This document shows, in pieces, positions 1 to 64,000 of a DNA stretch of 64,000 bases; position 1 is the first letter of the stretch; the number at the start of each line of letters is the position of its first letter. Position numbers and translations under genes: made by a program. Where the stretch lies: positions 118,544,001 through 118,608,000 of the forward strand of contig OZ024743.1 of the NCBI GenBank assembly GCA_964016885.1, in the 5' to 3' direction. This DNA comes from Eledone cirrhosa (lineage: Eukaryota). The notes beneath the pieces were generated by a model. The model was not told the origin of the DNA. It made no database searches and saw only the letters and a program-made list of their open reading frames with translations.

Positions 1-14
1 ATATATATATACAT

Positions 15-71
<57 letters not shown>

Positions 72-253
72 CACATACATACACATACACATATGCATAC
101 AGGTACACATACATATATGCACGCATCAGTTTAGCCGACGTTTATTATAACGCGTGCTTTGTTCGTTTGTTTGTCAACAAATCGAACAGCCTGAATTTAT
201 GCCATACAGTGTTAAGGCAACCACGTCACCTTTTTGTTCAACACTGACACAGG

Positions 254-299
254 AACGATGTACTAGTTTCAAGCTTGTTAGCTATCATCAGCACCGTTT
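254..299 (-). ncRNA. Minimal type I hammerhead ribozyme (family R1, inverted copy)
   Basis: Minus strand reads aacggtg-CTGATGA-t-agct-aaca-agct-t-GAAA-ctag-TA-catcgtt. Confidence 0.8.
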
Positions 300-445
300 A
301 CCCATCTGCCACATTTTTTTCAACTTATCGTTCTCGGTATGCCTGACCGATTTAACTCACTCAATATGCAAATTAGGCTGCTCAGCCGTTAATTTTCATA
401 AGGAAAGTATATACTTTCGAACGTTCAACTATCTGGCAGATGGGT

Positions 446-491
446 AAACGGTGCTGATGATAGCTAACAAGCTTGAAACTAGTACATCGTT
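446..491 (+). ncRNA. Minimal type I hammerhead ribozyme (family R1)
   Basis: Stem I is aacggtg/catcgtt (7 bp with one GU). Core CTGATGA at 454-460, short stem II, GAAA, palindromic stem III ACTAGT and a GUA cleavage triplet. Confidence 0.82.
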
Positions 492-673
492 CCTGTGTCA
501 GTGTTGAACAAAAAGGTGACGTGGTTGCCTTAACACTGTATGGCATAAATTCAGGCTGTTCGATTTGTTGACAAACAAACGAACAAAGCACGCGTTATAA
601 TAAACGTCGGCTAAACTGATGCGTGCATATATGTATGTGTACCTGTATGCATATGTGTATGTGTATGTATGTG

Positions 674-742
<69 letters not shown>

Positions 743-859
743 GCATGCTACTGTACGTCTGTATGCATATATGTATGTACGTATACATACATACTTACAT
801 TTAAGTAAGTGCCATACTAAGAGTGAGAAATGAAATTTCGTTTTCATTTTTTTCAACTT

Positions 860-11452: not shown

Positions 11453-11518
<66 letters not shown>

Positions 11519-21260: not shown

Positions 21261-21264
<4 letters not shown>
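20306..21264 (-). pseudogene. 5'-truncated third copy of the PLE-B ORF (thumb and GIY-YIG)
   Basis: Matches the C-terminal about 320 aa and is truncated at (TA)n at 21265. Confidence 0.93.
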
Positions 21265-21300
<36 letters not shown>

Positions 21301-22475: not shown

Positions 22476-23791
22476 GAATGGAGGATCAAAAAAGTTCGCG
22501 GAGTTTTTCAGAAAATATTCTATTTTTCAAAAAATATGATTTACCATCAATTTATTTTTCTACATAGTTTGATATCCAGGTCAATACACTTGACAAGGCG
22601 ATGCTTCCAGCTTCGTAAGCCGTCTCTAAAGAAAGTTGAAGGCCTTGTTCGAAGCCATGTGTTGGCAGTGCTTTTAGCTTCTTCAACACCACTAACACGG
22701 GTTCCTTTTAGCATTTCTTTGAGTTTTGGAAAGAGGAAAAAGTCTGATGGGGCTAAATCTGGACTATAAGGCGGGTGAGGAAGCACTTCCCATCGAAATT
22801 CTCGAGGAACTTCTTTTGCAACCCACGCAGAATGCGCTGGTGCATTGTCATGGTGAAACAAGATCCCACCATGAAGTTTCCCTTTTCGTTTCTTGACTAA
22901 AGCCTCTTTCAGCTTCCTTAAAACATTTGCATAGTAAGCTCCTGTCACAGTTCTTTGACCTTCAAGATAATCTATTAGTATCACCCCATCTGAATCCCAG
23001 AAAATGGTGGCCATCACTTTTTGATCCGACTTTTGAGATTTGAACTTGATTGGCCCCGATGATCCACGTGGAAGCCACTGTTTTGACTGCTGTTTGGATT
23101 CAGCATCATACTGGTAGATCCAGGTTTCATCTCCGGTGATGATTCTGGTCAGGAAATGCTCTTCATCAACTTCAATTTTGTTTAATATCGTCAAAGACAG
23201 ATCACTTCGAAGAATCAGCTGATTAGGGCGTAACGCTTTTGGGACGGATCGCGCTGAAAGCTTGCTTAGTCCCAAATTATCGTGTAGAATTGAATTTGCC
23301 GAACCATATGAAATGTCTAGGGACTTAGCTAACTGATTAACTGTTATTCTTCGATCTTCTTCAATTAAAGTCTGAGCAGCCTCAACGTTTTGGTCATTTT
23401 TTTTATGTTCCTAGTCTTCCTTGTGATGGTCGTCTTCAAGGTCGTCTCTCCCTTGTTTGAATCGCTGAATCCACTTGTAGAGAGCAGTTTTCTTTGGAGC
23501 AGTAGTACTGTAAACTTTAACTAAAACCTCCATAATCTGTGTCCCTTTCCATTTCAGTTTCACCAGAAACTTGATATTCGATCTTATCTCAAAATAACTA
23601 TTTTCCATTGTTCCAAAACGAGGTTTTTTAAAGAGTGTCAGTACTGTACAATAGTCCACGCATAACTGACTGCAAGTGACTAATAGCAAGGTAAACACCC
23701 AGTGACAATGTTCTGACATGTTTAATATTGTTTTAATCTATTTTTTTCTTACTACGATAAAATTCCGCGAACTTTTTGATCCCCCATCGTA
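22473..23791 (-). mobile_element. Mariner (DD34D) transposon, full-length but decayed
   Basis: Imperfect TIRs of about 30 bp (acga.tgg.ggatcaaaaagttcgcgga.tttt) flanked by TA runs. Length is about 1.3 kb. Confidence 0.93.
22547..23608 (-). pseudogene. Frameshifted mariner transposase
   Basis: TGDETW, HHDNAPAH, YSPDLAPSDF and a degenerate WVP (RSVPKAL). The N-terminal HTH part is in a separate frame (23411-23608). Confidence 0.92.
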
Positions 23792-23958
23792 TATATATAG
23801 GAGGAGGTTATAGTTCACTTGAAGCATTGTGTAATGAGGTATAAACGTTTGTATATGTATAATAAAGCCAAAACAATGCCGGTATGGACATAGAATAAAG
23901 AATGCAAATGCAAAAGATATTGTTGACAATTAGTCTTTTACTTTAGATTTATTTAAAT

Positions 23959-23997
23959 GTCCTTAATTTTCGAGATAATATCTCTTCTTCGGAGGGA
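23959..23997 (-). ncRNA. Minimal hammerhead-like motif with a CCGAAGA core in the PLE-C pseudo-LTR (decayed copy at 27112-27150)
   Basis: cct-CCGAAGA-a-gagat-att-atctc-GAAA-at-TA-agg, with palindromic stem III AATT. Confidence 0.6.
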
Positions 23998-24414
23998 AGT
24001 AAAGCGGTTAAACCAGTGTTCTAAATAGCTTACCAAGTCATGTTGACAGGAAATGGTATAGAGTATCTGTTCTATCTCTAATGTCAAAGAGTTAAGGTTA
24101 GGTGGATAAATAGTAGTCTCCCTTTAAAAGTTATTATTTTGTACATGCCTGTTTAAGTGTGTGGGAGAATGCATGAAGGTGTAAGTATGTGAGTGTGTGT
24201 GTGTGAGTGTGAGAAGATATGCCTATACGTAAATGTGGGGGATAGATGTTATCTCGTGTTAGAACTGGTCTTTGTGTGTGTATGTGTGTGTGTGAGAGAG
24301 AATAAGTGGTGGTGTAAGCGTGTGTGTGTGTGTGCGTGTGTGCGTGCGTGTGTGTGTGCGTGTGTGTGCGTATGTGTGTGTGGGGTGTGTGTAAATATGG
24401 GGCTAGAAGCTCTA

Positions 24415-26979: not shown

Positions 26980-27389
26980 TTGTGTAATGAGGTATAAACG
27001 TTTGTATATGTATAATAAAGCCAAAACAATGCATGTATGGACATAGAATAAAGAATGCAAATGCAAAAGATATTGTTGACAATTAGTATTTTACCTTAGA
27101 TTTATTTAATTGTCCTTAATTTTTGAGATAATATATCTTCTTCGGAGGGAAGTAAAGCTGTTAAACCAGTGTTCTAAATAGTTTGTTAAGAACTCTGGTT
27201 AAACCAATGTTCTAAATAGCTTGCCAGAACACTGGTTTAACCGCTTTACTTCCCTATACTTAAACAAACGTTTATATATATATATATATATATATAATTA
27301 TATATATAATTATATATTCATGTACAGATATTTTTGCATACACAATAAGGATAAATATATATCAAATATATAACAACCCTAGAGAAAAT

Positions 27390-27960: not shown

Positions 27961-29188
27961 ATTCGGTTTATTTTCTTTACATATTGTCCAGGCATGCAGT
28001 TTTTTCACGATTACGTCTGTTGGCAGCCCTCGTTCCAAAATACCTGAACCCTTTGCACACACGCGCAGACAGACACGTCTGTATACACACACGCTTATAT
28101 ACACCCGTATATAAACACATAGACAAACCCTGTCCTATGTGGGCGTACGTACGCGCCCACACACACACACCCACTGACAGATACTCACACCATATATATA
28201 TGTGTCTGTCTGCGCTTGTGTGCGCGTTTGCGTGCATGTGAGACCGGATGTATGGCGCGGTTTAGGCAGGCGCTAATAGGCTTGTGGCGGTCGGTATCTA
28301 GAAGTGGGTGTGCCTGGGTTTGTGGAAGAGAGGGAGAGTGTGTGCGCCTATATATGTGCATGGCGGTATGTGCGTCTACGTATGTATGCGTACATTTGTG
28401 CATGCACGCATGTGTCTGTGCCTGCCCGTGTGTGTGTATATGTGTTTGTGTGTATGTGTGAGTACATACTCTAGAGTGTGAACAGACGTGTGAGATACCG
28501 AACCCAGCATGACTCCATTGAAGTGTATCGGACAGAGAATGGCTGATGACCCGTGTAGCAGTAAATAGTGACCAGAACTTAAGATGACGTGGAATAGCAA
28601 CAGCCAATGGCATAACAAGAGTGGAAGATGTTTTTTGAAGGTGTTCTTTTGACGACAACACCCCAGGGAGAAGATTTTCTCCGAACGAACTACCCGTGTC
28701 CGAGGAACTTGCAGCCGTAGAATCAGCCAGATCCATACAGTGATCATGTTGGAGCTACCTGCCGGCGAAACAATTGTAACACGCAATAAACTGAGTCCAG
28801 ATGCATCACTGATTTTTCGTTTTTTATACTATCCACACTCTACTCTGTATGAATATTGCGTGCTAATTTTGGCATACCGCCTATAGAAGCACCATAGCTA
28901 CCATTATACACAAGTATATATATATATATCTCAAAGGTATATATTGAGTTAGAAACTCAAAATAGTCTCTTACAATAAAATAGCTCTAGAAAAGAGATTT
29001 TTCCGAGCCGTATATTATAACTGAATATAAAAGAAAAGCAAACACAGATATATACATGAGTTCAAATCGTTAGGGACCAGATTCGCTAAGGTGAAAAGAA
29101 TACTAACTATAGACAATAGGGTTTGCCAGACTCAATTTAAGAATAAATCAAGAAAGTAAATACAAACCGGAATTGTGGTAATTACCAA

Positions 29189-29268
29189 TCACCTGGACAG
29201 CTTTGATAATGCTGTTTCGCAAAATGAATTGTGAAGAGGAATACCAATTCTTGCTCATCAGCGGGTGA
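29189..29268 (-). ncRNA. Full-length type I hammerhead ribozyme
   Basis: tcacccg-CTGATGA-gcaaga...ttttgc-GAAA-cagc-attatcaaa-gctg-TC-caggtga. All three stems are present and the triplet is GUC. Confidence 0.88.
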
Positions 29269-29595
29269 AGAATTATTAGTATCCTGGTCACTTCTAAGTA
29301 TATTAAAAAAAACTGAATAGTGTGCGTATATATAATAACGCACATGGTATCTGAACTTAGCGTGTCTCACAAACTCACAACACTAAAAATAGCAGCCCGG
29401 TTTACTCGACATTTGAATTAGCTCAACAAATTAACGGAGCCGAATATATTGAGTATATCAAAGGTAAATATCGAGTAAACCGTGCTGCTACTTTTAGTGG
29501 TGTGAGTTTGTTCAAATACCATGTGTGTTATTATATATACGCACACTATTCAGTTTTTTAATATACTTAAAAGTGACCAGGATACTAATAATTCT

Positions 29596-29675
29596 TCACC
29601 CGCTGATGAGCAAGAATTGGTATTCCTCTTCACAATTAATTTTGCGAAGCAGCATTAACAAAGCTGTCCGGGTGA
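29596..29675 (+). ncRNA. Type I hammerhead, second copy (core GAAA mutated to GAAG)
   Basis: Perfect 7-bp stem I tcacccg/cgggtga, CTGATGA, GAAG, cagc/gctg and GUC. Confidence 0.8.
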
Positions 29676-29742
29676 TTGGGATATATTTATATATATATTT
29701 ATATTTATATATATATACATACATATACATACATATATATAC

Positions 29743-29966: not shown

Positions 29967-30004
29967 TTATATATATATATACATTTATATATATATATAT
30001 ATAT

Positions 30005-31345
30005 AATGGAAAATTTGAACAGGAACAAAACAGAGAGGCAGTACAACGAATGTTTATTAATTTCACGCTCTGGAGAGTGGGGTGGTGGTGGGGAACGACG
30101 TTTCGGGCATAAGCCCTTCTTCAGGTGAAAAGTGTGTGGGAAGAGAGTTCAAAGGGTGTGTAGGCAAGTGGTGGAGAGACATATAGCGAAAAGGGGGTGG
30201 GAGGAAACGGTGCGAATGAAATTAAAAATAAAAGCATGATCAAAATAAAATAAAATTAAAATGGGGTAAAACAGGTGGTGGAAGGGTGTGGGGTGTGTAG
30301 GGGTGGTGGCGGGTGGAGTGGGGACAGGGAGACGGGGTGTCGGAGCGGGGAGGGCTGAAGGTGGTGTGTGTGTAGGTGTACGTGTGTGTGTGTGTATGTG
30401 AAAGCAAGGGTTGGGGGAAGAACGGGGTTGCATGTTCAGGAAGAGGTGTGTGTGGGGTGGGGTGTAGGTCGGAGTGTGTGTGCGTGTGTGGATAGAGGGG
30501 TGTGGGGGAGAGGAATCCGGAGGCTGAAGGTGTAAATATGTGGTGGAAAGCAAGTGTGTGTAGGGATTAAGCGTGTTGTGGGTGTAGGTGGCGTGTGGGA
30601 AAAAAAACATTTTTTGGGGTGTGTGTGTGGGGGAGTTATAAAGGTGATTCCGTAAGAAGATGGGGTTGAAAGGTTGGTAAACTCCTAGGATGGTAGTTGA
30701 TTCTGCGGTCAAGCTCCACATACGAGTAATCCATGGAGAGATGGTCGGAAGAGGTGAGATGTGGGGTGCGCGCGCAACAGGAAGTGGTCAAGGCGGTAGG
30801 AGTGCTGTGTGTATGTGTGTGCGGGGAGGTGGTCAGAGGGCATAGCAGCAGTCGGGTGGAATGATAAAGGGGCGAGCATGGGTTGGTGTGAAAGTTGGAG
30901 TGAGGAGGGTGTGTGTGTGTATTAGTAGATTAGAGAGTGTGGTGTACTGGTGTGTGTGTAGTTTAATGAAGGGGGTGTTAGTGGCTGTTAGTATACGGGA
31001 GGTGGAGAAAGGGTTGAATGCAGGTGTGAGTGGGGGTTAGTGGTGGTGGGGTGTGTAGAGTTGGTGGTGTACGAGGGTGTGTGGGTACGTGTGCGTGGGG
31101 TTGGGGGGTGTTAGTGATGTTAGTTACAGTGTGGTGGGATGGATGTGTGGGGGTGAGGGTTAGTGGTGGTAGTAGGGTGTGTGTTTAGTGTGAGCGCGTG
31201 TATATATGTGCCGGTGGGTGTGTGCGTGTGATAAAGAGGGGGTGGAGAAGAAAGGAGGGATGTTAGTATGTTAGTTGGGGAAGGGTGGTCGGATGAGGGG
31301 TGGAGTGGAAGTGTTAGTATTGTTAGTTGTGGGGTGGGCGGTATA
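30005..31345 (-). mobile_element. PLE-type 3' end (family R4) with a minimal hammerhead and a long G/T-rich low-complexity body
   Basis: Bounded by (TA)n. Its first about 170 bp are homologous to 62665-62830. Confidence 0.6.
30092..30130 (-). ncRNA. Minimal hammerhead motif (family R4)
   Basis: cac-CTGAAGA-a-gggc-ttat-gccc-GAAA-cg-TC-gt, with palindromic stem III ACGT and a weak stem I. Confidence 0.68.
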
Positions 31346-34109: not shown

Positions 34110-34660
34110 AGAAAGAAAGAGAGAGGGGGGGGGGATAGATGAGATAGGAGGAGTGTAGTAGTGGAAGGAGGAGGAGGAGGAGTATGGAGCAAAAGAGTAA
34201 ATACACCAGCTGTTAACACTTCAAGCTGTCGGCACAAGTTGAGTCGGCCGACTATCTGGGACTGTTGCACTGTTAGAGTGTGTTATAACTTAAAACGTTA
34301 AATACTGAATAGTGGGCACTAACGTTGCCGTGTTGATGGTGGTGTTCATAGTGGTCGTGATGGAGCTTGTAATAATGATAAAAACGGTAGTAACGGGTAA
34401 CTGAGATGAGGAGTGCCTGTAAAAATTATTGAATAGACTTTTTTTTTTTTTTTTGCGAGAATGACTACTACAATACAAGTCGTTAGTTTCGTTAGTATGA
34501 AGATAATCAGGACGATGACAACGATAACGAGAATACCGACAAATGACGACAAAGACGATGACGATAGTGATGATAATGATAAGGGTGATAAAGTTAATAA
34601 TCATATTATTCAATCTCTAAATCGACTAAATCTTTGACTAAACTAAAGTTATATACCTTT

Positions 34661-34851
34661 AATAATTGTTTCTACTTTAGGCACAAGGCCAGCAATCAAC
34701 CAGTACATTACTGGTACTTTATTTTATCGACCCCGTAAGGATGAAAGACAAAGTTAATCTTGGCGGGATTTGAACTCAGACTGTAAAAGGACGTAACTAT
34801 GCTGGAAAGCATGGCGCCCAACCCTCTACCGATCCTGCCAATTCACCGCCC
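34661..34851 (-). mobile_element. tRNA-derived SINE with a Deu/Nin-type domain and a 16-bp TSD
   Basis: A box (TGGCAG.ATCGG), B box (GAGTTCAAATCC), the CTTTCATCCTTACGGGGTCGATAAAATAAAGTACCAG core and an (ATT)n tail. TSD atatacctttaataat. Confidence 0.9.
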
Positions 34852-39050: not shown

Positions 39051-41270
39051 AATGACTACAATATTGTTTTGTTACAACATCTTTTACCCGAAAAACCCAC
39101 TGTATCCTCTAGTGTGGTCTTTATTGTTTGCTTAATATCAGCCCATAATAACGAAACCATTGCTGGCCTTGTGCCAAAAGTAGAAACAATTATTATTGTT
39201 ATTTTCTTCCTGGTCAAGAGAAGTCCGCGGCTGGCATTTGAAATATTATCCAGCTACTCAATTGTTTGTCAGCCGAAAAAATGCTTGTGGTGGTACGCGA
39301 ACGTTTGCATTCTACAGCGTTCTTGTATTGGGATAGAGCCACAAATCTGTTCAGCACGTAATTATTTTGTACAACTAATATTGGGTGTAAGGTGTATACG
39401 TTTCTTAGCTGAGTCGATGCAGAGGATTATTCAATCTCCTTCGTTTGCTAGGGAATATGAAGCAGACTTCCTTTGTTTGGTGCCTCTGGTAAACGAATTT
39501 ATATGGTGTACAATATTGATTGACAGGGCTGTTCACTTCCCTAGTAGCTGAGTTAGAAATTTGGGAAAGAAATCTATCATGGGTAAATAAAAGCTTCGGA
39601 TGAAATTGATTTATTCTTGAACTGTATAATAAAATTACTATTTCAAACAAATTTTCACCCATAGTATGACGAGAAAAGATTAGAAACTGATTATATTTCT
39701 TAAAACTATTTTAAAACATTAAAGACAGACTGTTAAGAATTTTTAAAGGAGAAAAAATGCCAACGAAATTTATTATTTATTTATTTATCTTTTCATAATT
39801 TTAAGTTTCTTGAATTTTGTCAAAGCTTTGCATGAACAGGAACAAATTTATGTTACATTAGTCTAGACCACACAAGTCTGCTCCGAACTAATTAGAAAAG
39901 TTGTAGAGTGAAGAGATCTCAAGATTGTTGCTAAAAAATGAATACTAACAACCTGCAGGTGTGGACATCTTTACATTTAAGATCAGAGAAAATACCAGAG
40001 ATACTGGATGTATGTTTTTTGTTTGTTATTTTCTCTTTGCTGTTTACATTAATGTAAAGACGAGGAGTCATTTTTTTGTGTAATGATCTCTTAATATTTC
40101 TACATTTATGATCATGTACACACATAGTGATGAGGGGCGACGTATCATATTTTGTTAAATGAAAACTTCAAGAAAAAATAAGACAGTTATATTACATTCT
40201 AGTATCACCACAAATATTTACAACCGCTATTACTGTTGCCTCTACAGCGAACAATCTTGGTAACAAATGGCTGAATGGGTTCAAATTTCAGTTATACGTA
40301 TTTTAAAGTTTTACCTAAATTATTTAATTTCTTTGGATTTCTTATTTTTCAGTTAACTTGCCGAGGACGAAGGATCTCTTTAAGTAATCAGTGAGGGCTT
40401 TCTCCACGTGGTCGCCCAATTAGCTATAAATAGCAATCAAGTAATCTTCGAACCATACCTTTACAACTAAAAAGGTTTTCATTGGGTGATATAATATTAT
40501 ATAACTAATGCAGGGGCTATGTTTAAACATTAAGACAGAATAACCAGGGTTGGTTGCATTGAGCGGGGCTGTACAAGAACAAGTACATCTACAACTATTA
40601 CAAAAACTATGTCATTTCTGTGTTGCAGTATTTTCATCCACTCCTACACGCCACAGTTGAATCTCAGTTTTTGCTATTGGCAAGGTAATCAACTTTTCTC
40701 GTCCATTCATAGTTAGTCTGTGTGAATGCTGCAATATAACGCCTCACCTAAATAGAAGGAACTGCAACGTGGTCACAAGTTGCTAGAAATAACTTACCAA
40801 TTGCACCGTAGCCTCATAAGAATAAGAAAGTTTGGATAATATTTGTGTATAATACAGAATGTTACTGGTTACTAACAGCCTTCGGGCGGTTTTCTGCTAG
40901 CATGTAGGGTGCATATTCATATTATACGCAAATATACATGCATGTAAATATGATACATCAAATAAAATCGTAATTGACAATTTGCACAGAAATTGAAGAG
41001 AGACTGTGTTACACTGTCTTCTGTAATTAGTAAAGTAATCCATGATACATTTAAAAAAGACGATATTATATAATATCTAGATTACGGTGAAATGTAATGA
41101 AAATGAAAAAGGAGAAAATTAGCGAAAGAAATATAAACGTTATGATATAACGATGTAAATTTATGAACGTGTATATAAGCGATATGATATAGCGTCCGTT
41201 ATATCAGAACCGGAAGTATTGGCATTTGAAAATCTTAAAAGAAGTGAATCTTAAAATAAGCAATCATTAT

Positions 41271-41455
41271 TGGCAGTATCGATAGAGGGTCGGACGCCAT
41301 GCTTTGCAGCAAAGAGTTACGGCCCTTTATGGTCTGAGTTCAAATCCCGCCGAGGTTAACTTTGCCTTTCATCCTTACGGGGTGGATAAAATAAAGTACC
41401 AGTAATGTACTGGGTAATCGCTGGCCTTGTGCCAAATGTAGAAACAATTATTTAT
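41271..41455 (+). mobile_element. SINE copy
   Basis: A box, B box, core and tail. Confidence 0.9.
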
Positions 41456-42863: not shown

Positions 42864-43126
42864 AACAAAGAGGGTATGGTAAGATACCAGGTGGACCATA
42901 ACGCACAAGAGTACTCAATACCTAGGGTAGTAGAGTGGTTAATAGGAAAAATGTCAGGACCCTAACGGCTGAGCCCCGGCCGTTTCGATAGCTAGATCCT
43001 GACTCTTTTCATATATATGTATATATATAGATATATATATAGATATCTATATATATACATATATATGAAAAGAGTCAGGACCCTAACAGGCTGAGCTCCG
43101 GCCGTTTCGACGGCTAGATCTGAACG
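42864..43126 (-). mobile_element. Short (TA)n-embedded element (family R5) with two hammerhead 3'-half-like motifs
   Basis: Homologous, in inverted orientation, to 46340-46471. GAAA-cggc-loop-gccg-TT-agggt. Confidence 0.6.
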
Positions 43127-44949: not shown

Positions 44950-45133
44950 GTGAATTGGCAGTGTCGGTAGAGGGTTGGAGGTCATGCTTTCTAGCATAGT
45001 TACGTCTCTTTACGGTGTGAGTTCAAATCCTGCCGAGGTTAACTTTGCCTTTCATCCTTACGGCGTCGATAAAATAAAGTACTATTAATGTACAGGGTGA
45101 TTGCTGGCCTTGTGCCAAAATTAGAAACAATTA
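44950..45133 (+). mobile_element. SINE copy
   Basis: A box, B box, core and tail. Confidence 0.9.
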
Positions 45134-46148
45134 TATATAGGTATTTCATCTATGTTTCACAAATATAAATGGCGATTTGTAATAGTTACTCATCGTAGAT
45201 ATAAGAACGAGAAAACGTATCTTCTAATGAACAGTTAATAAGCTTTACAATATAAAAACATCCCCTCTATGATTTTCTGTAAGGGAAGAATACCCAAATG
45301 TATTTACATTTGTTGAAATTTTATGATGAGTCTAATAATTTTGAACTACAGTTACTCATATAAATTTCAAATATAATTTCTGAGATACGTAATGTTGTGT
45401 ATAAATATCGTTTTTTTTTTTGTCTTTAGTTTAAAGCATCGTCAACAATTGCACTATATATAAATTAAACTGGAAATTTCAGTAAATCTATGATTTATGC
45501 TTGATATAAATGGGGATTTGCAACATGAACGCTTCGTAGTTATCACTAAGCTGTGTTGTATGTTCGTAGGGGGATAGTTGGCATGCGAGGTCGAGTAGTA
45601 TATATGTATGTGTATGTATACATGCAAATAAATTCTAAGGAACACTCAGTGTTTACTATTAAATCAATTGCTAACCTGCACTCATAATTCCCCTTAAACC
45701 AACCTATATTCCGTAGAACAATTACAGAGTGGCATCAAACAAAGCTATTATTATCTGCAACGACGACAACCCCATTTCGTAATAGGCCTTACTCTATCCT
45801 TTCCTTATATCTGTGAATAATAAACTCCCTAAAACGAATAAGATAAAGAAAAAGTAAACCCTATAATCCATTTAACCTATCATGAAGATAATCATATCTT
45901 ATCATATCATATATATTTGTTTTTCTTCCTCTCTCTCTCTATATATATATATTTTTGTTATTATCATTATTTTCACTATTTGTACACATATGCAACTTAA
46001 CAATATTCTGCATTTCCGCAATTGACAACGTATTTAATGCTGAAACCGGTATTGTAATTAAATTAAAGTTTTGAAATTTCACTAAAAAAATATCTTCAAC
46101 ATTTTCTACTGAAAAAATGTTTTTCCTTTCTACTATATGTTTATATGC

Positions 46149-46236: not shown

Positions 46237-46275
<39 letters not shown>

Positions 46276-46278
<3 letters not shown>

Positions 46279-46469
46279 AAAATGTTTAACCCCGACGGCA
46301 GAACTCAAGCCATTTTGACGGCTATTTCTGGACTCCAGAAATAGCCGTCGAAACGGCTTGAACTCTGCCGTCAGGGTTAAACATTTTTCCTATTACCCAC
46401 TCTACTACCCTAAGTATTGAGTACCCTGGTGCGTTATGCTCCATCTGGTTCCTTACCACACCTCCTTCG

Positions 46470-50728: not shown

Positions 50729-50920
50729 ATAATGGTTTCTGTTAAGGCACAAGGCCACAAATTATCCCAGTGCATTACTGGTACTTTATTTTATCGACCC
50801 CGTAAGGATGAAAGGCAAAGTTAACCTCGGCCGGATTTGAACTCAGAATGGCAAGGGCCGTAACTCTATGCGTCAAAGCATGGCGTCTGACCCTCTACCG
50901 ATACTGTCAATCCACCGCCC
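50729..50920 (-). mobile_element. SINE copy with TSD attgcattataat
   Basis: Full head and tail. The TSD is on both sides. Confidence 0.9.
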
Positions 50921-51225
50921 TTATTGCATTATAATAATGTTATATTTATCGCTTAATGGAGTTGAAATCAGGCTTAATATTTCGGATGCTAGTCCTTTAT
51001 TAGAAAAACAGGGATAGGGTGTATGTTTCGGGAGAGAGAAGGAAAATGAAGAAGGACCATAGTAAAAAATAGTAAATAGAATGATATTAACAGTTTGATT
51101 TATTTATACAATACCAATGATTTCTTAGACCTAAACAGGCCGACGTCATTCAGATGTATATTAATGTTTACAGGTCTTTTTAAGAGTTGTGCAATTTCAT
51201 GAAAAAGATGAAATATTATGTGAAA

Positions 51226-51816
51226 TAATTGTTTCTACTTTTGGCACAAGGCCAGCAATTACCAAGTGCATTACTGGTACTTTATTTATACCCCGTGAGG
51301 ATGAAAGGCAAAGTTAACCTCGGCAGAATTTGAACTCAGAATGGCAAGGGACGTAACTCTATGCGTCAAAGCATGGCGTCCGACCCTCTACCAATACTGC
51401 CAATCCCCAGCCCATATTATGTGAAATAATTGTTTCTACTTTAGGAACAAGGCCAGCAATTACCCAGTACATTACTGGTACTTTATTTTATCGACCCCGT
51501 AAGGATGAAAGGCAAAGTTAATCTCGGCGGGATTTGAACTGAGACTGTAAAGGGACGTAACTCTGCTAGAAAACATGGCGTCCAACCCTCTACCGATACT
51601 GCCAATCCACCGCCCTACTATGTGAAATAATTGTTTCTACTTTAGGCACAAGGCCAGCAAATACCCAGTGCATTACTGGTACTTTATTTTATCGACCCCG
51701 TAAGGATGAAAGGCAAAGTCAACCTCGGCGGGATTTGAACTCAGATCGTAAAGGGACGTAATTATGATGGAAAGCATGGCGTCCGACCCTCTACTGATAC
51801 TGCCAATCCACCGCCC
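51226..51816 (-). mobile_element. Three head-to-tail SINEs separated by the repeated target TATGTGAAATAAT
   Basis: Copies at about 51226-51413, 51427-51615 and 51627-51816. Confidence 0.92.
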
Positions 51817-52202
51817 TACTATGTGAAATAATACTTTCAAATCAATAAAACTGTTTTCGGTCTCAAATGATACTGCGTTTTAATTAACGCGCATAAATTA
51901 ACGATATCATATTAACAACATTTAATCAATTGAACGATTAAGATTTTTATCCATACTGTGTATGTGTGTGTATCTGTAGCACCTTAGTCACTGGTTATTA
52001 TTATTATTTTACTTGGTAGATTAGGGGGAAACTGCAGCGCCCATGGCTTTTAAAGTATCTATAAACGTTAATAAATTCATACTTGAAAGCTAACTTTTTA
52101 ACCTGGGCAAAACCGGGTGTTCTACTTGCACACACACGCATACACACACAAACACACACACAGCCAACCCCCTCGCTATCTCCCTGTCTCTCTTTCCTTC
52201 CA

Positions 52203-52324: not shown

Positions 52325-52937
52325 TTATTTATTTATTCATATATATATATATGGCGGGGAAGCGAGAAAGAAAGAGAAGAAACAAGATAAGATTACTATC
52401 TATGAATCGCATTTCTTCACTACTACTGGTATGAAAACACGATGCTAAGATTTGGTTGCTTTAAATAGAGGAAACCACGACAGCAATATTATCCCGTTTC
52501 TCCCAACACTAAAGTGTTGGTAGAAAAGGGAGTAATATTACTGATTCTTGTGAAAACACTAGTGTGCTATAAATCGGGTTCCAGTTCTCGTTCAAATTTC
52601 TTGACCTCAACAATAGGCTCATATTAGCATCTCTTTAAGGCTACTTGATTCTTATTTTCTCTTCTTTTGTGGATATTTTCTTTATGGGTAAAAATATTTT
52701 CGTTTTCATTTTCTTTGCGATCATTCTTCAGGCATTTTTATTTCATCTTCTCGTTCTTCATTCTATTTGTTACGTTTTAGTGTGTGTTTTTTGTGTATGG
52801 GGAAGACATTTCTTTCTTTTTTACGTTTTCTTTATATTATTTTGATTATTTGTGTTTTCCTTTTCCTTCAGTTTTGTTTCAATTTCTTGCTGAGTGTCTT
52901 CCCGAGACCTAGGTAAGAGAAACTCACTGGATTATTA

Positions 52938-53120
52938 TTGGCAGTATCGGTAGAGGGTCGGAGGCCATGCTTTCTAGCATAGTTACGTCCCTTTACAGTC
53001 TAAGTTCAAATCCCGCCGAGGTTAACTTTGCCTTTCATCCTTACGGTGTCGATAAAATAAAGTACCTTAATGTACTGGGTTATTGCTGGCCTTGTGCCTA
53101 AAGTAGAAACAATTATTATT
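52938..53120 (+). mobile_element. SINE copy
   Basis: A box, B box, core and tail, inserted in (ATT)n. Confidence 0.9.
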
Positions 53121-55152
53121 ATTTTTGTTTTAGGAGTAGAATTAGTAGTAGTAATAGAAATGGTGGTGGCGGTGGTGTTTGTGATAGTAGTAGTAGTAGT
53201 AGCTAGCAGCAGCAGCAGCAGCAGCAGCGATAGCAGCAAGTACAGCAGTACCATAATTCTCAAGTTTATCATTTCATATCCATGGAATCATCTACTACAA
53301 GGAAAAAAACCGTTGCTGACTCCTATTTAATGTCTACTAAATCAACAAAAATACAAAAAAGAGAAACACAATACTAACATTAGCATTATCATCCCACTCA
53401 CCACCAGTGAAACAGCAGCAGCAACAACTAGAATAAAAAATAATTACAATAAAAAGTTCGTATACAAACCAGCAGAAATAACAAATGAAACGCTAAGTAA
53501 ACATCAGCAGTTACTAAAAAAATAGAGAAAGCAACAGTTTGCAATAACCAAAAGAACGTGAAACCCGTAAAAGTAAATACTTTAACCTCTGATCAGTGTT
53601 TAACCCCCTACAAAACTTGTGTGACCCACATTGAAGTATAGTGGTTAGCTAGGGTAGAATTCCCGCTACTATACAACCAAACATTCTAGGGCTCAGCCAA
53701 AGGTTTGATAGATTCTGTTTTTACTAACGTACTGCAGCCATTAGCCCACTTACGTGATCATCCTTTATTCTATTTATGATATCAAAATGGTCTTTGTAAA
53801 GCTGCGAATTGGCATAGTCAATGGAGATGTGGATAGAATATTTTGAGGTATTTGTTCCGACTCTCCGCGCTCTAAGCAAAAATCACACCCAGTTTAACTT
53901 TATATAAATTATGACTCAAGAATTGACATTGGTTTATTCTTTATCTTTCACTCTGTCTTTCTCTGTTTCTCTCCCACTCTCTCATTCCCCTTCCTCTTGA
54001 TCGCTTACTTTTCTTCAGATAGTTAAACAGAAGGGCCAATGTACATGTACGTATTTATCGAAAGAGAGATAGTGTGAGTGTGCCTATGAGAGAGAGAGAG
54101 AGAGAGAGAGAAAGAGGGGGGGGGGGGGGGGCAGAGACACCTAGCTTATAATACGTGTAGCTTTTTGGTTAATAAAAGACATGATTAAATTCAGTTAACT
54201 CATATAGATTAAACTGTCCATCTCCATCTACCTGGAATTGCTATCGTGAGGCTTCATCAATGCATGCAACAGAATACTTGGGAATTAAACAGTTAATAAA
54301 AGATACGTTGGAGTGAAATGATATTTCTTGATGGGGAAAGGTAATTGTAATGCATGCATAATTATTCACTTGTTAGTTTTCTTATATTTCTCTTTATTCA
54401 AACATCTATCCAAGTTAATCATCAATATGTATATATTTAACGAAACGAGAGATGATACAAATTTATTCGTGTCTTGCAGGCGCAACTCTGAAAGTTAAAA
54501 TGAAAACTTGCAATGGCGGTTGTCTAGACATAATTTTCTTTTAGTGCTACACATAATTTGAATAGGAACAATGTTTGTGTGCGTATTCCATTTTCCTGGC
54601 TCTTTCAAATTTGTGAAGAAATGGGGCCGTCAGACATCGGTAACCAGCTTCCAACATAAATAAATTTCATAGATGAAGATGTGAACAGCGGAATATAGAG
54701 GGTCGACAACGATGTAGTCTGATAGACGTAAATGCCAGGAATCTGCAGATTACCAGCCACAGCTATAGGCATTAATTGAATTTAATATGTTCTTTTCTTT
54801 GTATTAAACGTAATGTAGTAGCTAAAGTTTAACAATAGTGACTGCAAAATGCTTCTCTCTAACTAACAAATACGTACACGAATGAATCAACCAACCAACC
54901 GAAAGTCACCATTCTCAGTACGTAATCAACTAGCTTATTTGAAATTTTTTCACGGGGAGAACTGATTAACGAAGCCTAATGACACGGCTTATTCAAAAAC
55001 TGACAAGGTGCAAGGGAAATACATTAAGATGACCAACGTTGCATTTATACTGTAGAAGAAAAATATGCCTTTACATTAGGCCAGAGCAATAAACGAAATT
55101 CTGTGAATATATGAATTTTAAGTATATATATATATATATATACATACATATA

Positions 55153-56309: not shown

Positions 56310-57084
56310 CATGCACATACACTAACTCACCAAAACACAGAGACAGCGACAATCAGGCACACACACGTGTGCGTATGTTTGTATGTGTGTGAGTGCATGG
56401 GTGTGTCTGTACGTGTGTGTTTGTGTGTGTTAGTTGTATTTACGTGTGCCTATATATATATATATATATATGAATGAATAATTTCGTGCGTATGTACATA
56501 GATACATACATGCATATTTACGTACATAGAGACAGACATACCTATTCACTTACCTACCTACCTACCTACATACCTTCATACATACATACACACATTCATA
56601 CATTTATACATTTATACATGCATACATACATACGTACAAACATAATCACACATACATATACATAAACACCCGTACGCTAAACAAAAATTGAAACATCTCA
56701 GTTATATTTTCGGCTTCTCAAAAGTAATTTTGAATAATTTAGGATGAACTCCTGTTGTGTTGAGATCTAACTTGTTAGCTCAGAAGCTTCTGTCTAACAC
56801 ATGAAACAGCAACAAACAAAACTAAGATAAATCGGAATAGAAACTAAAAGAGAATAAAAGTAGAGGAACGGGGAGGGCTGAGAAAAGACGAAGGTGGAGA
56901 AATAGAAGAAAAAGTATGATAATAACAAAAGCAATGACTGCACCAGCTCTATGAAGTATAACAAATATTGAAGAAGAAAATACAAAATAAAAGGAAAAAT
57001 ACCCTATCACTTCTATCATAAACAGAAGCCCATGAAGAGTTCAATATTTCGACCACAGTAATTAACTAGTAGTTATATTAACGA

Positions 57085-57783
57085 CTCCAGAGAATGAAAG
57101 GCAAAGTTAACATAGACAGGATTTGAACTTACAGCAAAATTTGTCAGATCCTCAAACGTTTCTACTAATACCCACATTAATAATTGTTTCTACTTTTGGC
57201 ACAAGGCCCGCAATTATCCCAATGTACTTTATTTTATCGACCCCGAAAGGAGGAAAGGCAAAGTTAACCTCGGCGGGTTTGAACTCAGATCGTAAAAGAG
57301 CGTAACTCTATGCTGCAAAGCATGGCGTCCGACCCTCTACCGAAACTGCCAATTCACCGCCCATTCTTGCATTCATAATGATTTTTGATATATGCACGAG
57401 GCCAACACATTTAGGGGAAGGGAAAGTCAATCGAAGCTACCCGGTGCGTTAATGGTACTATATTTTATCGACCCCGCAAGGATGAAATGCAAAGCTAACT
57501 TCGGCAAGATTTGAATTCAGAGCGTAAAAAGACAACTATATTGTGCACAACATGGTGTCCGACTCTCTAACCAATACTGCCAATCCGCCCACTCTATTCT
57601 CGTATTAATAATTGTTTCTACTTTTGGCACAAGGTCAGCAATTACCCAGTACATTACTGGTACTTTATTTTATCGGCCCCGTAAGGATGAAAGGCAAAGT
57701 TAACATCGACGGGATTTGAACTCAGACCGTAAAGGAACGTAACTATGCTAGAAAGCATGGCGTCCAACCCTCTACCCATACTG
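57085..57783 (-). mobile_element. Cluster of four SINE copies of different ages
   Basis: About 57085-57170, 57178-57362, 57375-57590 and 57607-57783. Confidence 0.85.
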
Positions 57784-58993
57784 AATGATTTCTGATTTAG
57801 GCATTGAGACAATAATTTGTATTTGATTATGTTGTCCCCAGTAGTTGACTGTTTCTTTTTTGTTTTTCTGTTGTTTTTTTTTTTGTATTTATATTAGTCT
57901 GTATTAATAGCATTTATAAACGTAGCTACGTACTGAGATCCATTTTGCCTAGCGTGGCACAAAACTGCTTCCATTGTCTTTTTCAATACTAAAGTCGATT
58001 ATATCGACGCTGGTTCTGGTCAAAGAAAATGATAATATTAGAAAACTATTAATATTTTGTTTACATAGCATAATTTGTCCATGTATTGACTTCTCAGATA
58101 TCAATTTACCTCACACTAAAATGCGAAAAAAAAAAAAAAATAACGAGAATATGGTTTGAATTCAGTCTTCAAATTGGAATACGTAAACACATGCGAACTA
58201 ACACAAATCAGTCGTTCATTTATTATATTTCATTCATTCGCAGTAGTGTTAGAGCAACGGTAAAAATGATGCAACGTATTGGTTTCACGGCCAACGTCAT
58301 CTTTGTTATTTATTATCGGTGAATCGATAAAATAACGTACCAGTCACGGCAATATTCTGCAATGTGATCCTAACGCACAAAGTTACATTGCCCGAGGAGG
58401 ATGATGGACTGAGGTTAGGGGGGGGGGCGGGTAATGAATGGCTTTCTTCACTCATCCTACGTGTTTTGTTTCTTTTGCGTGCAACTTTTATATATATATA
58501 TATATATGTATGTATTGTGAAGAAAATCATATATCCCCTCCACTCAAGCCGCACACCCATCCGGGCAAGCAACTTTGTGTATTAATTACCATGGTATTAC
58601 AGAATATTAAGCGGTAAACGCTCAACGCCATGGACATCATCAGGTATTACGGATATGGTATCAAATTGAGTATCAATATTTAGAAAGATGGAGCCGGTTT
58701 CACATATTCATCTTCAGTTCATTATATAACACCTTTTATGTATATTTCAAAGGCATCAAATGGCCATTATGTAAACGTTATCCAATGCGATGTCATCAGA
58801 TAGGTGATTAAATGTAATATATATATATATATATATCAAGTAAGAATATTTTCTAAACAGCGAGTTGGTTTGAAATTATTAGAAATCTAGGCTATCGCCG
58901 TATTTTGACTAAAGAAATTAAAGAAATTATTTAGCCTGATAAGAACCTGATAAGAACCCTCGAAGAAATGGAAAAAGATGAGTATTGACGTAC

Positions 58994-59034
<41 letters not shown>

Positions 59035-59035
59035 G

Positions 59036-59092
<57 letters not shown>

Positions 59093-59505
59093 CATGTGTG
59101 TATCTGTGTGTGTATTGTGTGTGTCTGTGTGTGTGTGTATTGGTTTTTGATATGCCTGCCATTTATATACTTCACTTTTGTATTCATTTTGCAGGATTTT
59201 TGATGTGGAATCATGTATTAAAACCGGTAATGTTACATTTTGGGAGAGATCTGCAGCAACAAAACACAACCAAATCTATTATTATTCAATTAACAAATCT
59301 ATTTCTCAATTGGTTGCATAAGCTGATAGTTATTTAATGGTAAACGCTCTTTAGTCACACATTCACAATAAACATTTTGACTCTCCGTGTCTCCTCTTCG
59401 CTTTGATTTTCTTCTAGTTATGAAATTTTGCATTCCTTGGTGTATATAGTATGTGCTTATATTCACAGCTGCGTGTGTATACACCCATGTACGCGTGTTT
59501 GTGTT

Positions 59506-59536
<31 letters not shown>

Positions 59537-60156
59537 CTTAATATATTTCTTTTCACGAGAGCCTGAAATTCAAAGTTCGCCCCGGCGGTGTTTGAATTCA
59601 AAGGGTAAAAATATGGAACAAATACCACAAAGCCTTTGTCCGACCCTCTAACGATTCTGCTAATACACCAAATATCATATAGACATATATAAGTAGTGTG
59701 AAGAGTGTTTAATGTAAGAGAAAACATGAGTAAGTCGGAGGAGTATAGAACATTTTCTTCCTGTGAAGATGGGAAATTGAAAGATATTCTAACTTAGAGA
59801 GTGATATTTTGGTCAACGAGAAAAGCAGAACTCCAGTGTGGTAAAACAGCTATAGATATAATATACCGACAAAACTGTTTGATATGGGTCTTGATATGCA
59901 TCATTAACTCACACAGATCTTTCAAGCTGGAGGAGTCGGAAGAAGCGACCAATGATCTTATAGCAATCCCTATCTTAAACATGCGGCCAATATGTTTTAG
60001 TATTCTTTTCAGATTTCTTTCACTCTTTTTCTCATTTTCTCTACATCTCTATACTTCTTTCATTTTTAACCTTTCTCTTCATTCCTTTTTTCTTCCGCTC
60101 TTTCTCTTACTATAGCGTCTCCCTCATCCATTCGATCTTTTTTACTTTCTCCCTCC

Positions 60157-60202
<46 letters not shown>

Positions 60203-60456
60203 ATATATGAAGGAATTTGTTTGATTTGGGTGTCTGGTGTGTGCGCGTTGAGTGTGTATGTGTTCGTAGCCTTTGTTTTCTATGGTATTTAGTTGTTCGG
60301 TGCTATAAGCTATTTTATAGCATTTGTATTCTCATAGCACCTATCTATCTTTTAATGTAATATATCTGCCAACATATATATATGTGTGTGTATTTGACTC
60401 TGTGTGTGCATGATTTATATGCATGCACGCACACGCACGCACGCACACGCACGCAC

Positions 60457-60604
<148 letters not shown>

Positions 60605-61094
60605 CTGTGTGTATGTGTGTTTCCAAGGTTGTCATGTCGAGATGTGTTAGTGGGTAAAAGTATCCGCTAACTGAAAAGTGCTTTTCATGGAATGCGTCTC
60701 ACGCATCTTCATACAACGAAGTCTAAATAATAGAATTTAAGTGAGCCTGCTATTTATGTCCGGTGTGCTGTTTTCCCGCTGGGATTTAATGGCCACGGAG
60801 AGTCCTGAAATCTTAAATTTTGTGCTTGTGATGTCTTGAAATTGTCACCCTAGCAAGGCATTTCCTCCAAGCGAGGGAGGACCCTAATTTCAAACTGAAA
60901 AGAGATACCCACCCAAATGAAGAAAAAGGAATAAACCCTGCGGACATTTGGCATGAGAACTAACTATTTTGAAAGACAGAGCCTGGAACTTAGCATCTAT
61001 AAATTGTCTTGGATAAATTTGCTTGACATAGATCTGTTCTATGTAAATTACGTTTAGAATACGTTTTGAATACAACAATAAATAATATGTACAC

Positions 61095-61620
61095 AACGGC
61101 TGATTAGCCTCATTTGCTTAGCAGCGGATAGAATACACAATCTTGATATGGGGCAAAACACTCTGAAACAATTTTCGATTGTTTTCTCCCAGATACCACT
61201 GGAATAAAAGAATGACGTTGTCATCTAACATGGGGTGTTTTACGAGGCTGTTTACTTGTAAACAAACCGAATATTAATAATATAATATATTATATATTAT
61301 TTTTCACCCACGAATAAATTTAGGTACCAACCATTTTAAGAGCTAAAACAAATTTTGTTTTTTTTAATTTTCGGCAAAGCCGGCCGTAAAATCACTCGAT
61401 ATGCAAATGAGATTAATCAGCCGATGTATACATTTAATAATTCTATGTATCTTCAGCAGTTCCAGTGGCTAACAGCGAGCAGTACACTCAATCTTGATAA
61501 TAAGTAAAAAAACTCCGAGCAATTGTCGATTTTTTATCTCTCAGCTACCGCTGGAACAAAAGGTTGACGTTGCCATTTAACACGTAGTGTTTATGAGGCT
61601 GTTTACTTGGGAGACAACTT
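61095..61620 (+). mobile_element. Older retrozyme-like family R2, related to R1: about 1.5 tandem units of 351 bp with a short inverted 5' piece
   Basis: Repeats at about 61122-61268 and 61473-61618. Shares blocks with R1. Decayed hammerheads at 61139-61180 and 61490-61531. Confidence 0.68.
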
Positions 61621-61682
61621 TGAAAATTAATTAGAAATAGCTGGTCGTATTACTACGTAGTGGCTTCGTAGTTCGTTAGCAG

Positions 61683-62131
61683 TTTTTTTTTTTGTTTTTT
61701 TTGTTTTTTTTTTTGTATTTACGATATTTGATTTATTAAAGGTGTTATATCAGATGGAAGAATGGTATTTAACTAATGTATTGGTACGCGATGGAGCCCA
61801 CCCACAGCCCCGGCGGACAGAATGGAGAAGGCGTTTCCCAGAAGGACGGCAAGGGAGACGCGCTGGAAAAGCCACTCCAACTCGCGGGGCTCACACCTGC
61901 GGCTGGCCAGCTCAGCGCCTATAGTGGTGAGTAAGGAGGTAGCCCTGGGGCCGAAGACACCAGAAGTCTCCACTGCCAGGGGTACAACCGCAAACCTGTC
62001 GGAGAGCAACATGTATTTGAGGAGTTTGGCCCCCCTCATCCCGACGTGCAGCAGAACCTGGGTCAGTCGCAGACTGCACCAGGTTGCGGCTGCAGAAAGT
62101 GTCGGTGCAAGTGGCATCCCAGAAACCAAAT
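61683..62131 (-). pseudogene. 3' end of a CRE-like non-LTR retrotransposon (RLE domain) with an A-rich tail
   Basis: K..KY..L..RF.VVPLAVETSGVFGP.A...EPRE..WLFQRVSLAV..GNA.SIL. A T-rich tract at 61683-61715 on +. Confidence 0.78.
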
Positions 62132-62134
62132 ATT

Positions 62135-62327
62135 AATAATAATTGTTTCTACTTTTGGTACAAGGCCAGCAATTACCAAGTACATTACTGGTACTTTATT
62201 TTATCGACCCCGTAAGGATGAAAGGCAAATTTAACCTCGGCGGGATTTGAATTCAGTCCGTAAAGGGACGTAACTCTATACTGGAAAGCATGCCGTCCGA
62301 CTCTCTTCCGATACTGCCAACCCACCG
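62135..62327 (-). mobile_element. SINE copy
   Basis: A box, B box, core and tail. Confidence 0.9.
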
Positions 62328-62373
62328 TTTGATAATAATATGATATGATTGTAATATTATTATTCACTCAGGA

Positions 62374-62423
<50 letters not shown>

Positions 62424-62732
62424 ATATATATATATATATAGGGAGTGTAACTTGGAGTTACTGCAGGTTCACCCGGGTGAGCACTCGATGTTTAGGTTCA
62501 CTTCTGTGTTGAGGTGTAGAGCTATACAGTGTGTAATATATTGAAAGGATAACAAGGACGATTGGTTACTCCTTCATTACATTTATTGGTAAATGTAATG
62601 AAGGAGTAACCAATTGTCCTTGTTATCCTTTCAATATATATATATATATAGTTTAATAAATGAATAGAGAACAAAAAACAGAGAGGCAGTCCAAATGATA
62701 TTTTTTTAGTTTCACGCTTGAGAGTGAGGGGT

Positions 62733-62772
62733 GGAGGACGACGTTTCTGGCATAGGCCCTTCATCAGGAGAA
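62733..62772 (-). ncRNA. Minimal hammerhead motif (family R4)
   Basis: ctc-CTGATGA-a-gggc-ctat-gcca-GAAA-cg-TC-gt. Confidence 0.62.
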
Positions 62773-62980
62773 CAGAACAGAGGGTAGGAAGAGAGTTCCG
62801 AGGGTGTGTGGGGGAGTGGTGGAAAGACATTTTAAAAAAAAGGGGGGGGGGAGAAGGGATGAAAAACAATTTTTTTAGAGAGTAAAGGAAATTATTTAAA
62901 AGTACAAATAAAAATAAAAATAAATATATATTCTTTGCTTAAATTTTAATCTGTTATTTCAATATATATATATATATATA

Positions 62981-63034
62981 TGTAAGTATGTATGTATACG
63001 TACATACATATATGTATACAGACGTACAGTAGCA

Positions 63035-63110
<76 letters not shown>

Positions 63111-63826
63111 CAGGTACACATACATATATGTACGTATCAGTTTAGCGGACGCTTATGTTAACGCTCGCTTTGTTCATTTGTAAACAAACTGAACAGCCTG
63201 AATTTATGCCGTACGGTGTTAAGGCAACCACGTCACCTTTTTGTTCAACACTGATACAGAAACGATGTACTAGTTTCAAGCTTGTTAGCTATCATCAGCA
63301 CCGTATACCCTTCTGCCAGATGGTTGAACGTTCGAAAGTATATACTTTCCTTATGAAAATTAACGGCTGAGCAGCCTAATTTGCATATCGAGTGAGTTCA
63401 GTCGGCCAGGCGTACCGAAAACGATAAGTTGTAATAAAATGAAAACGAAATTTCATTTCTCACTCTTAGTACGGCACTTACTTAAATGTAAGTATGTATG
63501 TATACGTACATACATATATGTATCAAGACGTACAGTATTGAACAAAAAGGTGACGTGGTTGCCTTAACACCGTACGGCATAAATTCAGGCTGTTCAGTTT
63601 GTTTACAAACGAACAAAGCGAGCGTTAACATAAGCGTCCGCTAAACTGATACGTACATATATGTATGTGTACCTGTATGTATATATATATAAATATATAT
63701 ATATATATGCATGCTACTGTACGTCTGTATACATATATGTATGTACGTATACATACATACTTACATTTAAGTAAGTGCCGTACTAAGAGTGAGAAATGAA
63801 ATTTCGTTTTCATTTTATTACAACTT
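62981..63826. mobile_element. Second family R1 insertion: about 1.1 units (506 bp) on minus plus an inverted partial copy (63538-63826)
   Basis: Homologous to 1-859. TGTAAGTATGTATG recurs at 62981 and 63487. It ends in CAACTT + (AT)n. Confidence 0.82.
63262..63304 (-). ncRNA. Minimal type I hammerhead ribozyme (family R1)
   Basis: acggtg-CTGATGA-tagctaacaagctt-GAAA-ctag-TA-catcgt, identical to 448-490. Confidence 0.8.
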
Positions 63827-64000
63827 ATATATATATATATATGTAGGAGGTGAGTTTTATTGTAGTACAATAAAGCAATGCAGATATCGGATAAGAAGCA
63901 CTCTACAGTTTGTGGGACTGGAGTATGCATAATATAAGATCAAAAGATGGTTAAAGGAGTTCCATATATTTTATTATGCGCATTTCAAAAACAAACATCA

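Follow-up and report, generated by a model that had tools for sequence, protein, structure and literature searches.

A high-copy non-coding unit with a predicted type I hammerhead: a probable retrozyme-like element moved by a PLE

What kind of element leaves two opposed copies of itself in an (AT)n tract, with a hammerhead ribozyme in only one of them, and what part might that ribozyme play in its spread? The question is raised by positions 62981-63826 of the window (the whole 64,000-nt stretch of DNA that was analysed), which exact-match mapping and alignments resolve into two arms of a ~506-nt non-coding unit, joined head-to-head at 63537/63538 (locus 2); a second insertion of the same unit occupies the other end of the window (locus 1). 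The element behaves like a retrozyme moved by a Penelope-like retrotransposon (PLE), and we consider it quite probable that this high-copy, non-coding unit of ~500 bases with a predicted type I hammerhead is a retrozyme-like PLE parasite, its (AT)n insertions having probably been copied from circular RNA or from multimers left uncleaved.

The longer arm of locus 2 (62981..63537, minus strand; 557 nt) comprises one 506-nt period plus a 51-nt terminal repeat; it holds the sole ribozyme of the locus, passes through both this hammerhead and the unit junction, and its 3′ end (...TTACAT, at 62981) runs into (AT)n. That the unit reads continuously through a CAACTT junction, as had been described earlier, is borne out at 63431-63426 on the minus strand, where CAACTT|ATCG closes the unit head-to-tail at the position that serves other arms as 3′ terminus; the junction (63426..63431) is predicted to lie unpaired between two hairpins, with the next cut site 158 nt downstream. 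A (TA)n tract within the unit (63038..63106, minus strand), different in length in each arm, has near-palindromic arms on either side. The short arm (63538..63826, plus strand; 289 nt) is without a hammerhead, begins ~20 nt downstream of the predicted cut site and ends with CAACTT in (AT)n; a CAGT microhomology is found at the head-to-head joint. It reaches 60 nt past the stop point of the long arm, and this one-sided extension (63767..63826, plus strand), which the insertion has at its right end and not at its left, resembles the Penelope ‘tail’ (PMC8557442, PMC3846280). The (AT)n target sequence lies at 62963..62980 on the left side and at 63827..63842 on the right, a target duplication not being discernible.

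The same plan is found at locus 1 with different breakpoints. Here the long arm (312..859, plus strand) is made up of one 533-nt period and a 15-17-nt terminal repeat, with its hammerhead at 448-490 and its end at CAACTT+(AT)n, while the inverted arm (1..311, minus strand) starts 51 nt upstream of the cut site, has its hammerhead at 297-255 and has its 3′ end cut by the window edge. Within each locus the arms are nearly identical (216/216 over the compared part of locus 1; 143/144 over 63538-63681 of locus 2), as would be expected if each locus arose in a single event; the two loci differ from one another by 30 events in 441 columns (6.8%). The loci do not belong to a larger segmental duplication, a possibility that the preliminary description had set against its own reading: the flanks share 0 HSPs (860-6000 against 57000-62980 or 63827-64000).

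At both loci a copy ending in CAACTT+(AT)n had been reported together with an inverted partial copy. Both arm types are indeed present (with CAACTT ends at 859 and 63826), but at locus 2 it is the inverted arm that is long, exceeding one unit, and the CAACTT-ended arm that is partial. Similarly, CAACTT+(AT)n does recur as a terminus at both loci, but the 3′ end is not the same for every arm, as the long arm of locus 2 stops at its earlier site; and what had been taken for a different permutation point is rather a variable 5′ end, the 3′ end being the fixed one. None of the arms starts at the cut site: three begin 51, 173 and 270 nt before it and one ~20 nt past it. (AT)n is reached by all three visible arm ends (3/3), both types of end coming after an ACTTA-like motif, with AT common to unit and target. 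Four different arm starts and terminal repeats of 15-17 and 51 nt make this a pseudo-LTR-like partial tandem with variable 5′ truncation; the one-sided extension is seen at one locus, the left end of locus 1 being outside the window.

The lengths of the arms bear on the template. A cleaved linear monomer would end the long arm of locus 2 at 287 nt and the arm is 557 nt long, which points to an uncleaved multimer, a circle or a jump between monomers. The earlier proposal of a circular or multimeric template thus survives to the extent that both long arms are longer than a cleaved monomer and cross an intact cut site and junction. End-to-end jumps of the RT on cleaved linear monomers, rebuilding the cut site, would yield equally seamless arms, and the inversions could come from self-priming of antisense RNA instead of two-strand priming; both have been proposed for PLEs, self-priming as an alternative route to head-to-head arms (PMC3846280). 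We regard this alternative as unlikely. None of the window's arms begins at the cut site, where read depth shows no step, dropping by just ~10% over the bins that span it; a PLE studied in vitro was able to extend both strands, its template being mostly unprocessed RNA (PMC11167929); and neither window junction has a spacer-free palindrome, the two arms starting at different unit positions. The alternative concerns how the copies were made, and the class of element would be the same under it.

By motif scan and by inspection of its pairing, compared with PMC4209133 and PMC7229834, the sequence at 63262..63304 (minus strand) can form a type I hammerhead, with a stem I of 6 bp (ACGGTG/CATCGT), a stem II of 4 bp (AGCT/AGCT) with U.U at its base, a 2-bp palindromic stem III (ACTAGT) and a complete core (CTGATGA...GAAA); the cut is predicted after GUA, between 63268 and 63267. 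A predicted long stem (63244..63329, minus strand) extends stem I and places the hammerhead at its tip. At both loci helix I is of ~6 bp, helix II of 4 bp, helix III short and palindromic, and the core is full; helices of such sizes are canonical for metazoan motifs, which are thought to act as dimers (PMC4209133). The element's hammerhead is a predicted self-cutting RNA. It is without the usual G10.1-C11.1 pair, and the catalytic fold differs from the minimum-energy fold (z 0.21 and -1.40). Rfam gave no match in the window at gathering score, and at E up to 10 its 66 matches in 60900-64000 included no hammerhead family and were mostly miRNA models on AT hairpins; hammerhead pattern scans found 0 loci in viral contigs, metagenome contigs and prokaryote genomes.

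The preliminary description had seen many substitutions outside the 43-nt ribozyme and none within it, and had taken this invariance for selection on the ribozyme. Between the two window loci there is indeed no difference (448-490 against 63304-63262), but this is not beyond chance: the probability that this particular 43-nt window would be invariant was 0.04, and that of some run of at least 44 nt was 0.79 in 20,000 random placements of the differences. The ribozyme falls in a 44-nt invariant run, and longer ones lie elsewhere (66 nt at 364-429 of locus 1 and 48 nt at 766-813; a listed 46-nt run was excluded as it crosses a join made over the microsatellite). Nor is it invariant in the family, since 4 of the 40 variants listed (of 77 variant rows, all variant tests resting on these 40) lie inside it, each at 31-47% of reads. 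Their density (4/43) matches that outside (34/331; Fisher P = 1.0), so that on these reads the hammerhead is no better conserved in sequence than its flanks, an outcome that had itself been named as telling against the earlier reading; with longer invariant runs elsewhere and read variants inside, we rejected ribozyme invariance as a sign of selection. Of the four variants, one falls on N7 (a variable core position), one on loop II and two on the partners of a single stem I wobble (G.U to U.G); avoidance of 11 core positions by the four has, alone, P = 0.29. The wobble partners have matching frequencies in both read classes (51/49% and 5/6%), and it is from these frequencies, not from single molecules, that we infer that they are linked.

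Selection of another kind is suggested by the fold of the whole unit. Over 374 unique bases, the RNA of the ribozyme strand folds at z = -4.56 against 60 shuffles and the antisense RNA at z = -1.77; as a circle the unit RNA is 70% paired. Among the 40 listed variants, 25 are at unpaired positions, 8 leave their pair intact, 3 have a compensating change and 4 disrupt a pair, where 14.4 breaks are expected (0/20,000 draws). When the fold was left unedited and variants were shifted in a way that retains their clustering, 6/40 break a pair against 15.3 expected (0/1,865 shifts); outside the ribozyme the number is 4-5 of 35 (5 with the unedited fold) against 13.0 (0/1,865 shifts). On the antisense fold the deficit of breaks is not significant (P 0.15-0.25); its paired positions are somewhat avoided by variants (P 0.02-0.05), as hairpins are partly common to both strands. 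A consensus fold of the two sequences, with 1 compensatory pair in 100, carries little weight. As the variants spare pairs of the predicted sense fold, selection appears to act on the fold of the entire RNA, beyond the ribozyme; the earlier claim of selection thus holds as structure-preserving variation over the whole unit, and not as better conservation of the ribozyme sequence.

How large is the family in which this variation is seen? We compared the unit region 63113-63533 with 4 of 24 listed public sequencing runs (X1, X22, X4 and X5), ten listed runs with shares of 0.09-0.14 being left out of all counts. The family proved large, with 5,275 matching contigs in run X1, 80,522 of 12.47 M reads in run X22, and 52 and 30 contigs in the runs of organisms B and C. 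These are counts of contigs or reads, and summed contig depth was not taken as copy number. In organism C, five contigs end in (AT)n at the position of CAACTT and have another sequence at their termini, indicating that it is the position of the 3′ end that is fixed and not the hexamer. The family is unnamed in the literature covered; a prior entry in Repbase or Dfam, which lay outside that coverage, is possible, and the supplements of PMC7229834 and PMC4209133, which tabulate many animal hammerheads, may include this one.

The reads also contain joints, 15 of 117 of which are shown. All belong to a single reduced-representation library and none of the 15 lies in a contig run, which leaves library artefacts possible among them. 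A strand change occurs in 11 of the 15 shown. Five of these were dropped for having an end at most 5 nt from an AATT site, where reads of this library end; the remaining six all lie at different places, and for two of them the side lengths show a head-to-head arrangement. Read ends at 63201, 63361, 63378, 63381, 63449 and 63452 were rejected as biological ends, as they coincide with AATT, the site of the library enzyme.

A more distant view of the unit comes from a diverged copy at 61319-61617 (nhmmer E 8.9e-9). It belongs to a decayed head-to-tail dimer (61119..61640, plus strand) with a period of ~351, to which an inverted piece (61070..61120, minus strand) is joined head-to-head. The earlier proposal of PLE-type inversion is supported, with head-to-head inverted, 5′-truncated arms at both window loci and at this third, related one, and with read joints at varied places. 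Hammerhead-like motifs are found in the relative at 61137-61182 and 61488-61533, the position homologous to the unit's ribozyme, but their stems differ (stem I ACAATC/GATTGT, palindrome ACAATTGT), and one copy has a GUC site. The core is apparently U3-A8, a variant described in PMC4209133, each copy being broken at different core positions, and one period of the relative folds at z -3.0. The ribozyme region is among the parts less conserved between the two (19/43 with unit 2). Best conserved is a block at 63363..63398 (minus strand; 29/36 kept), which contains a predicted hairpin and the octamer-like ATGCAAAT (63386-63379). The promoter of newt satellite 2 uses an octamer. That satellite is likewise a hammerhead-bearing tandem unit, with an internal promoter of snRNA type as cited in PMC2220036; the octamer-like motif kept upstream of the ribozyme here makes the block around ATGCAAAT a candidate promoter, as a lead only.

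With the relative and the reads in hand, we can weigh the view that the loci are products of segmental duplication or of a DNA-level satellite, in which hammerhead and fold would be neutral passengers. The ribozyme sequence is no more conserved than the rest, as this view would have it, and 8/9 tested Xenopus retrozyme dimers did not cleave (bioRxiv 10.64898/2026.07.22.740005). Unrelated flanks, different arm layouts, thousands of contigs with varied inversion points, the strand bias in the preservation of the fold and a hammerhead re-written at the same position in the relative all speak against it, and we judge it very improbable and largely refuted.

Could the unit be part of a larger coding element? 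Its longest ATG frames are of 48 aa (sense, across the microsatellite) and 71 aa (antisense), and neither an RT or endonuclease frame nor a tRNA gene was found in it; we therefore rejected the unit as an autonomous PLE, which would have an RT plus GIY-YIG endonuclease frame. It might still represent no more than the pseudo-LTR that belongs to an autonomous PLE, with the loci as 5′-truncated stumps and not an independent parasite. PLE insertions are mostly truncated, and paired opposite-strand hammerheads 100-700 bp apart have been described as truncated PLEs (PMC4209133); moreover, 3,649 X22 reads are clipped just upstream of the junction. However, the majority letters of these clipped reads resemble a variant of the unit's own end (agreement 0.59), both long arms close on themselves, unit end joined to unit start without coding sequence, the distant relative is likewise a closed dimer, and the helix sizes of the hammerhead are canonical and not minimal. 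We find this reading improbable, and prefer that of a parasite in its own right.

Non-coding tandem units that bear a hammerhead are known as non-LTR retrozymes (PMC7229834), and a 2026 preprint (Li, Clavereau & Pollet, bioRxiv 10.64898/2026.07.22.740005) argues that retrozymes are non-autonomous PLE derivatives. Our unit resembles the animal non-LTR retrozymes (Cervera & de la Pena 2020, PMC7229834; Li 2026) in being a non-coding head-to-tail unit of low GC, in its canonical type I hammerhead with a weak palindromic helix III, in its strongly self-paired RNA and in its coexistence with PLEs; U.U at the base of helix II is also found in axolotl HHR_Amex2 (PMC7229834). It differs from retrozymes, as these sources describe them, in that the loci hold 1.0-1.1 units per arm and not arrays, so that Li's scheme would class them as monomer derivatives; in that the 506-533 nt unit contains its own (AT)n tract; and in bearing marks of PLE insertion (head-to-head arms, a tail-like extension and a fixed 3′ end). 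The two hammerheads in tandem that define an active retrozyme are found intact at neither window locus, each hammerhead-bearing arm having one.

Partial tandems, inverted arms, tails and a (TA)n bias are standard in PLEs (PMC8557442, PMC8969392). GIY-YIG PLEs (Craig 2021, PMC8557442; Arkhipova 2013, PMC3846280; Cervera 2014, PMC4209133; Frangieh 2024, PMC11167929) are described with a C-terminal endonuclease, pseudo-LTRs, an inverted 5′-truncated arm, an optional tail and a (TA)n bias; the unit is like them in its partial tandem with a 5′-truncated upstream copy, its head-to-head inverted arm, its extension at one end, its AT-rich target, a hammerhead in the repeat and a 3′ end away from the cut site. 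The tail-like extension is of 60 nt here (at one locus), compared with 30-40 nt published for PLEs, and, unlike GIY-YIG PLEs, the unit itself is non-coding and is matched by no autonomous element in the window. A further parallel is Chlamydomonas MRC1, a non-coding, non-autonomous PLE that forms pseudo-LTRs and head-to-tail insertions (PMC8557442); MRC1-type elements differ from our unit in belonging to the mostly hammerhead-less Chlamys group and in having 3′ ends common with a known partner (PMC8557442).

We propose, then, that a PLE protein moves a retrozyme-like RNA. The unit would be transcribed in the hammerhead sense, and a PLE protein would nick both strands of an (AT)n tract. Each nicked end may then prime reverse transcription within the RNA, mainly at ..CAACUU|AU in the loop between the two hairpins and sometimes 60 nt earlier, and the two cDNAs could halt at variable points and join head-to-head, at locus 2 via the CAGT microhomology. 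A PLE protein is known to nick and extend both strands of AT-rich DNA, without need for ribozyme cleavage, and to begin synthesis within the RNA, at two neighbouring sites by which the tail is defined (PMC11167929); such behaviour would account for the fixed end and the one-sided extension of 60 nt and, as we infer, for the two outward arms. The hammerhead would act at another step, not forming the insertion end: paired as a dimer via its palindromic stem III, it may cut tandem transcripts and allow circles to form. Selection would be on the ability of a copy to be copied again, across the whole fold. The idea of a circular template was already put forward in PMC4209133.

How animal retrozymes move is a question for which the 2020 paper names PLEs as candidate (PMC7229834), while the 2026 preprint argues the PLE link from co-occurrence and pseudo-LTR homology and leaves the mechanism unresolved (bioRxiv 10.64898/2026.07.22.740005). 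Each single feature reported here has been published, and the locus is a useful added example and not a new principle; a high-copy family that combines a canonical hammerhead with PLE insertion marks is, nevertheless, a good test bed for retrozyme mobilisation. A bolder version, which we entertain as a tentative possibility, is that of a self-promoting circular RNA parasite: an internal octamer-type promoter would drive its transcription, the hammerhead would make ~500-nt circles, and a Penelope-like enzyme would read the circle from a fixed loop, priming from both (AT)n strands. If true, this would for the first time prove on genomic evidence that Penelope enzymes use retrozyme circles as substrates and that head-to-head inversion reflects two priming events, and thousands of copies would record the copying of circles directly; the unit itself also carries an internal (AT)n tract.

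Candidate helper PLEs are present in the window, namely a tandem element with a 1,216-aa RT-endonuclease and an element with a 631-aa frame of RT plus GIY-YIG, and none of the window's PLEs has termini that resemble the unit. The 631-aa PLE (24415-27184, minus strand) has direct terminal repeats at 23799-24031 and 26952-27184, and its hammerhead-like core reads CCGAAGA, not CTGA. A PLE at 11511-21265 (minus strand), with no Pfam hit, is similar to it (E 5e-17); a short 3′-terminal piece of this PLE (1061-1140; 61 nt at 100%) lies beside the (AT)n that flanks locus 1. A broken PLE-like frame (471 aa; 3415-3783 and 4953-6704) has a 369-nt head-to-head inverted arm of 98% identity. Another PLE-type family is represented by two 3′ ends that run into (AT)n, one at 62634-62980, adjoining the left flank of locus 2, and one at 29989-30201 (both minus strand); this family carries a minimal hammerhead, at 62767-62740 and 30124-30097 respectively. 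A near-perfect palindrome of 104 nt beside (AT)n (62536-62639) is possibly the stump inversion of a further PLE-type element.

Other repeats in the window include a frame for a mariner-type transposase at 22547-23410 (minus strand; Pfam Transposase_1, E 1e-21) and more inverted repeats around microsatellites at 29185-29679, 46274-46393 and 42997-43080. An abundant dispersed repeat of ~190 nt, in short tandem runs in places, was observed at 34660-34850, 41269-41453, 44954-45134, 50729-51838, 52937-53121, 57179-57783 and 62134-62327.
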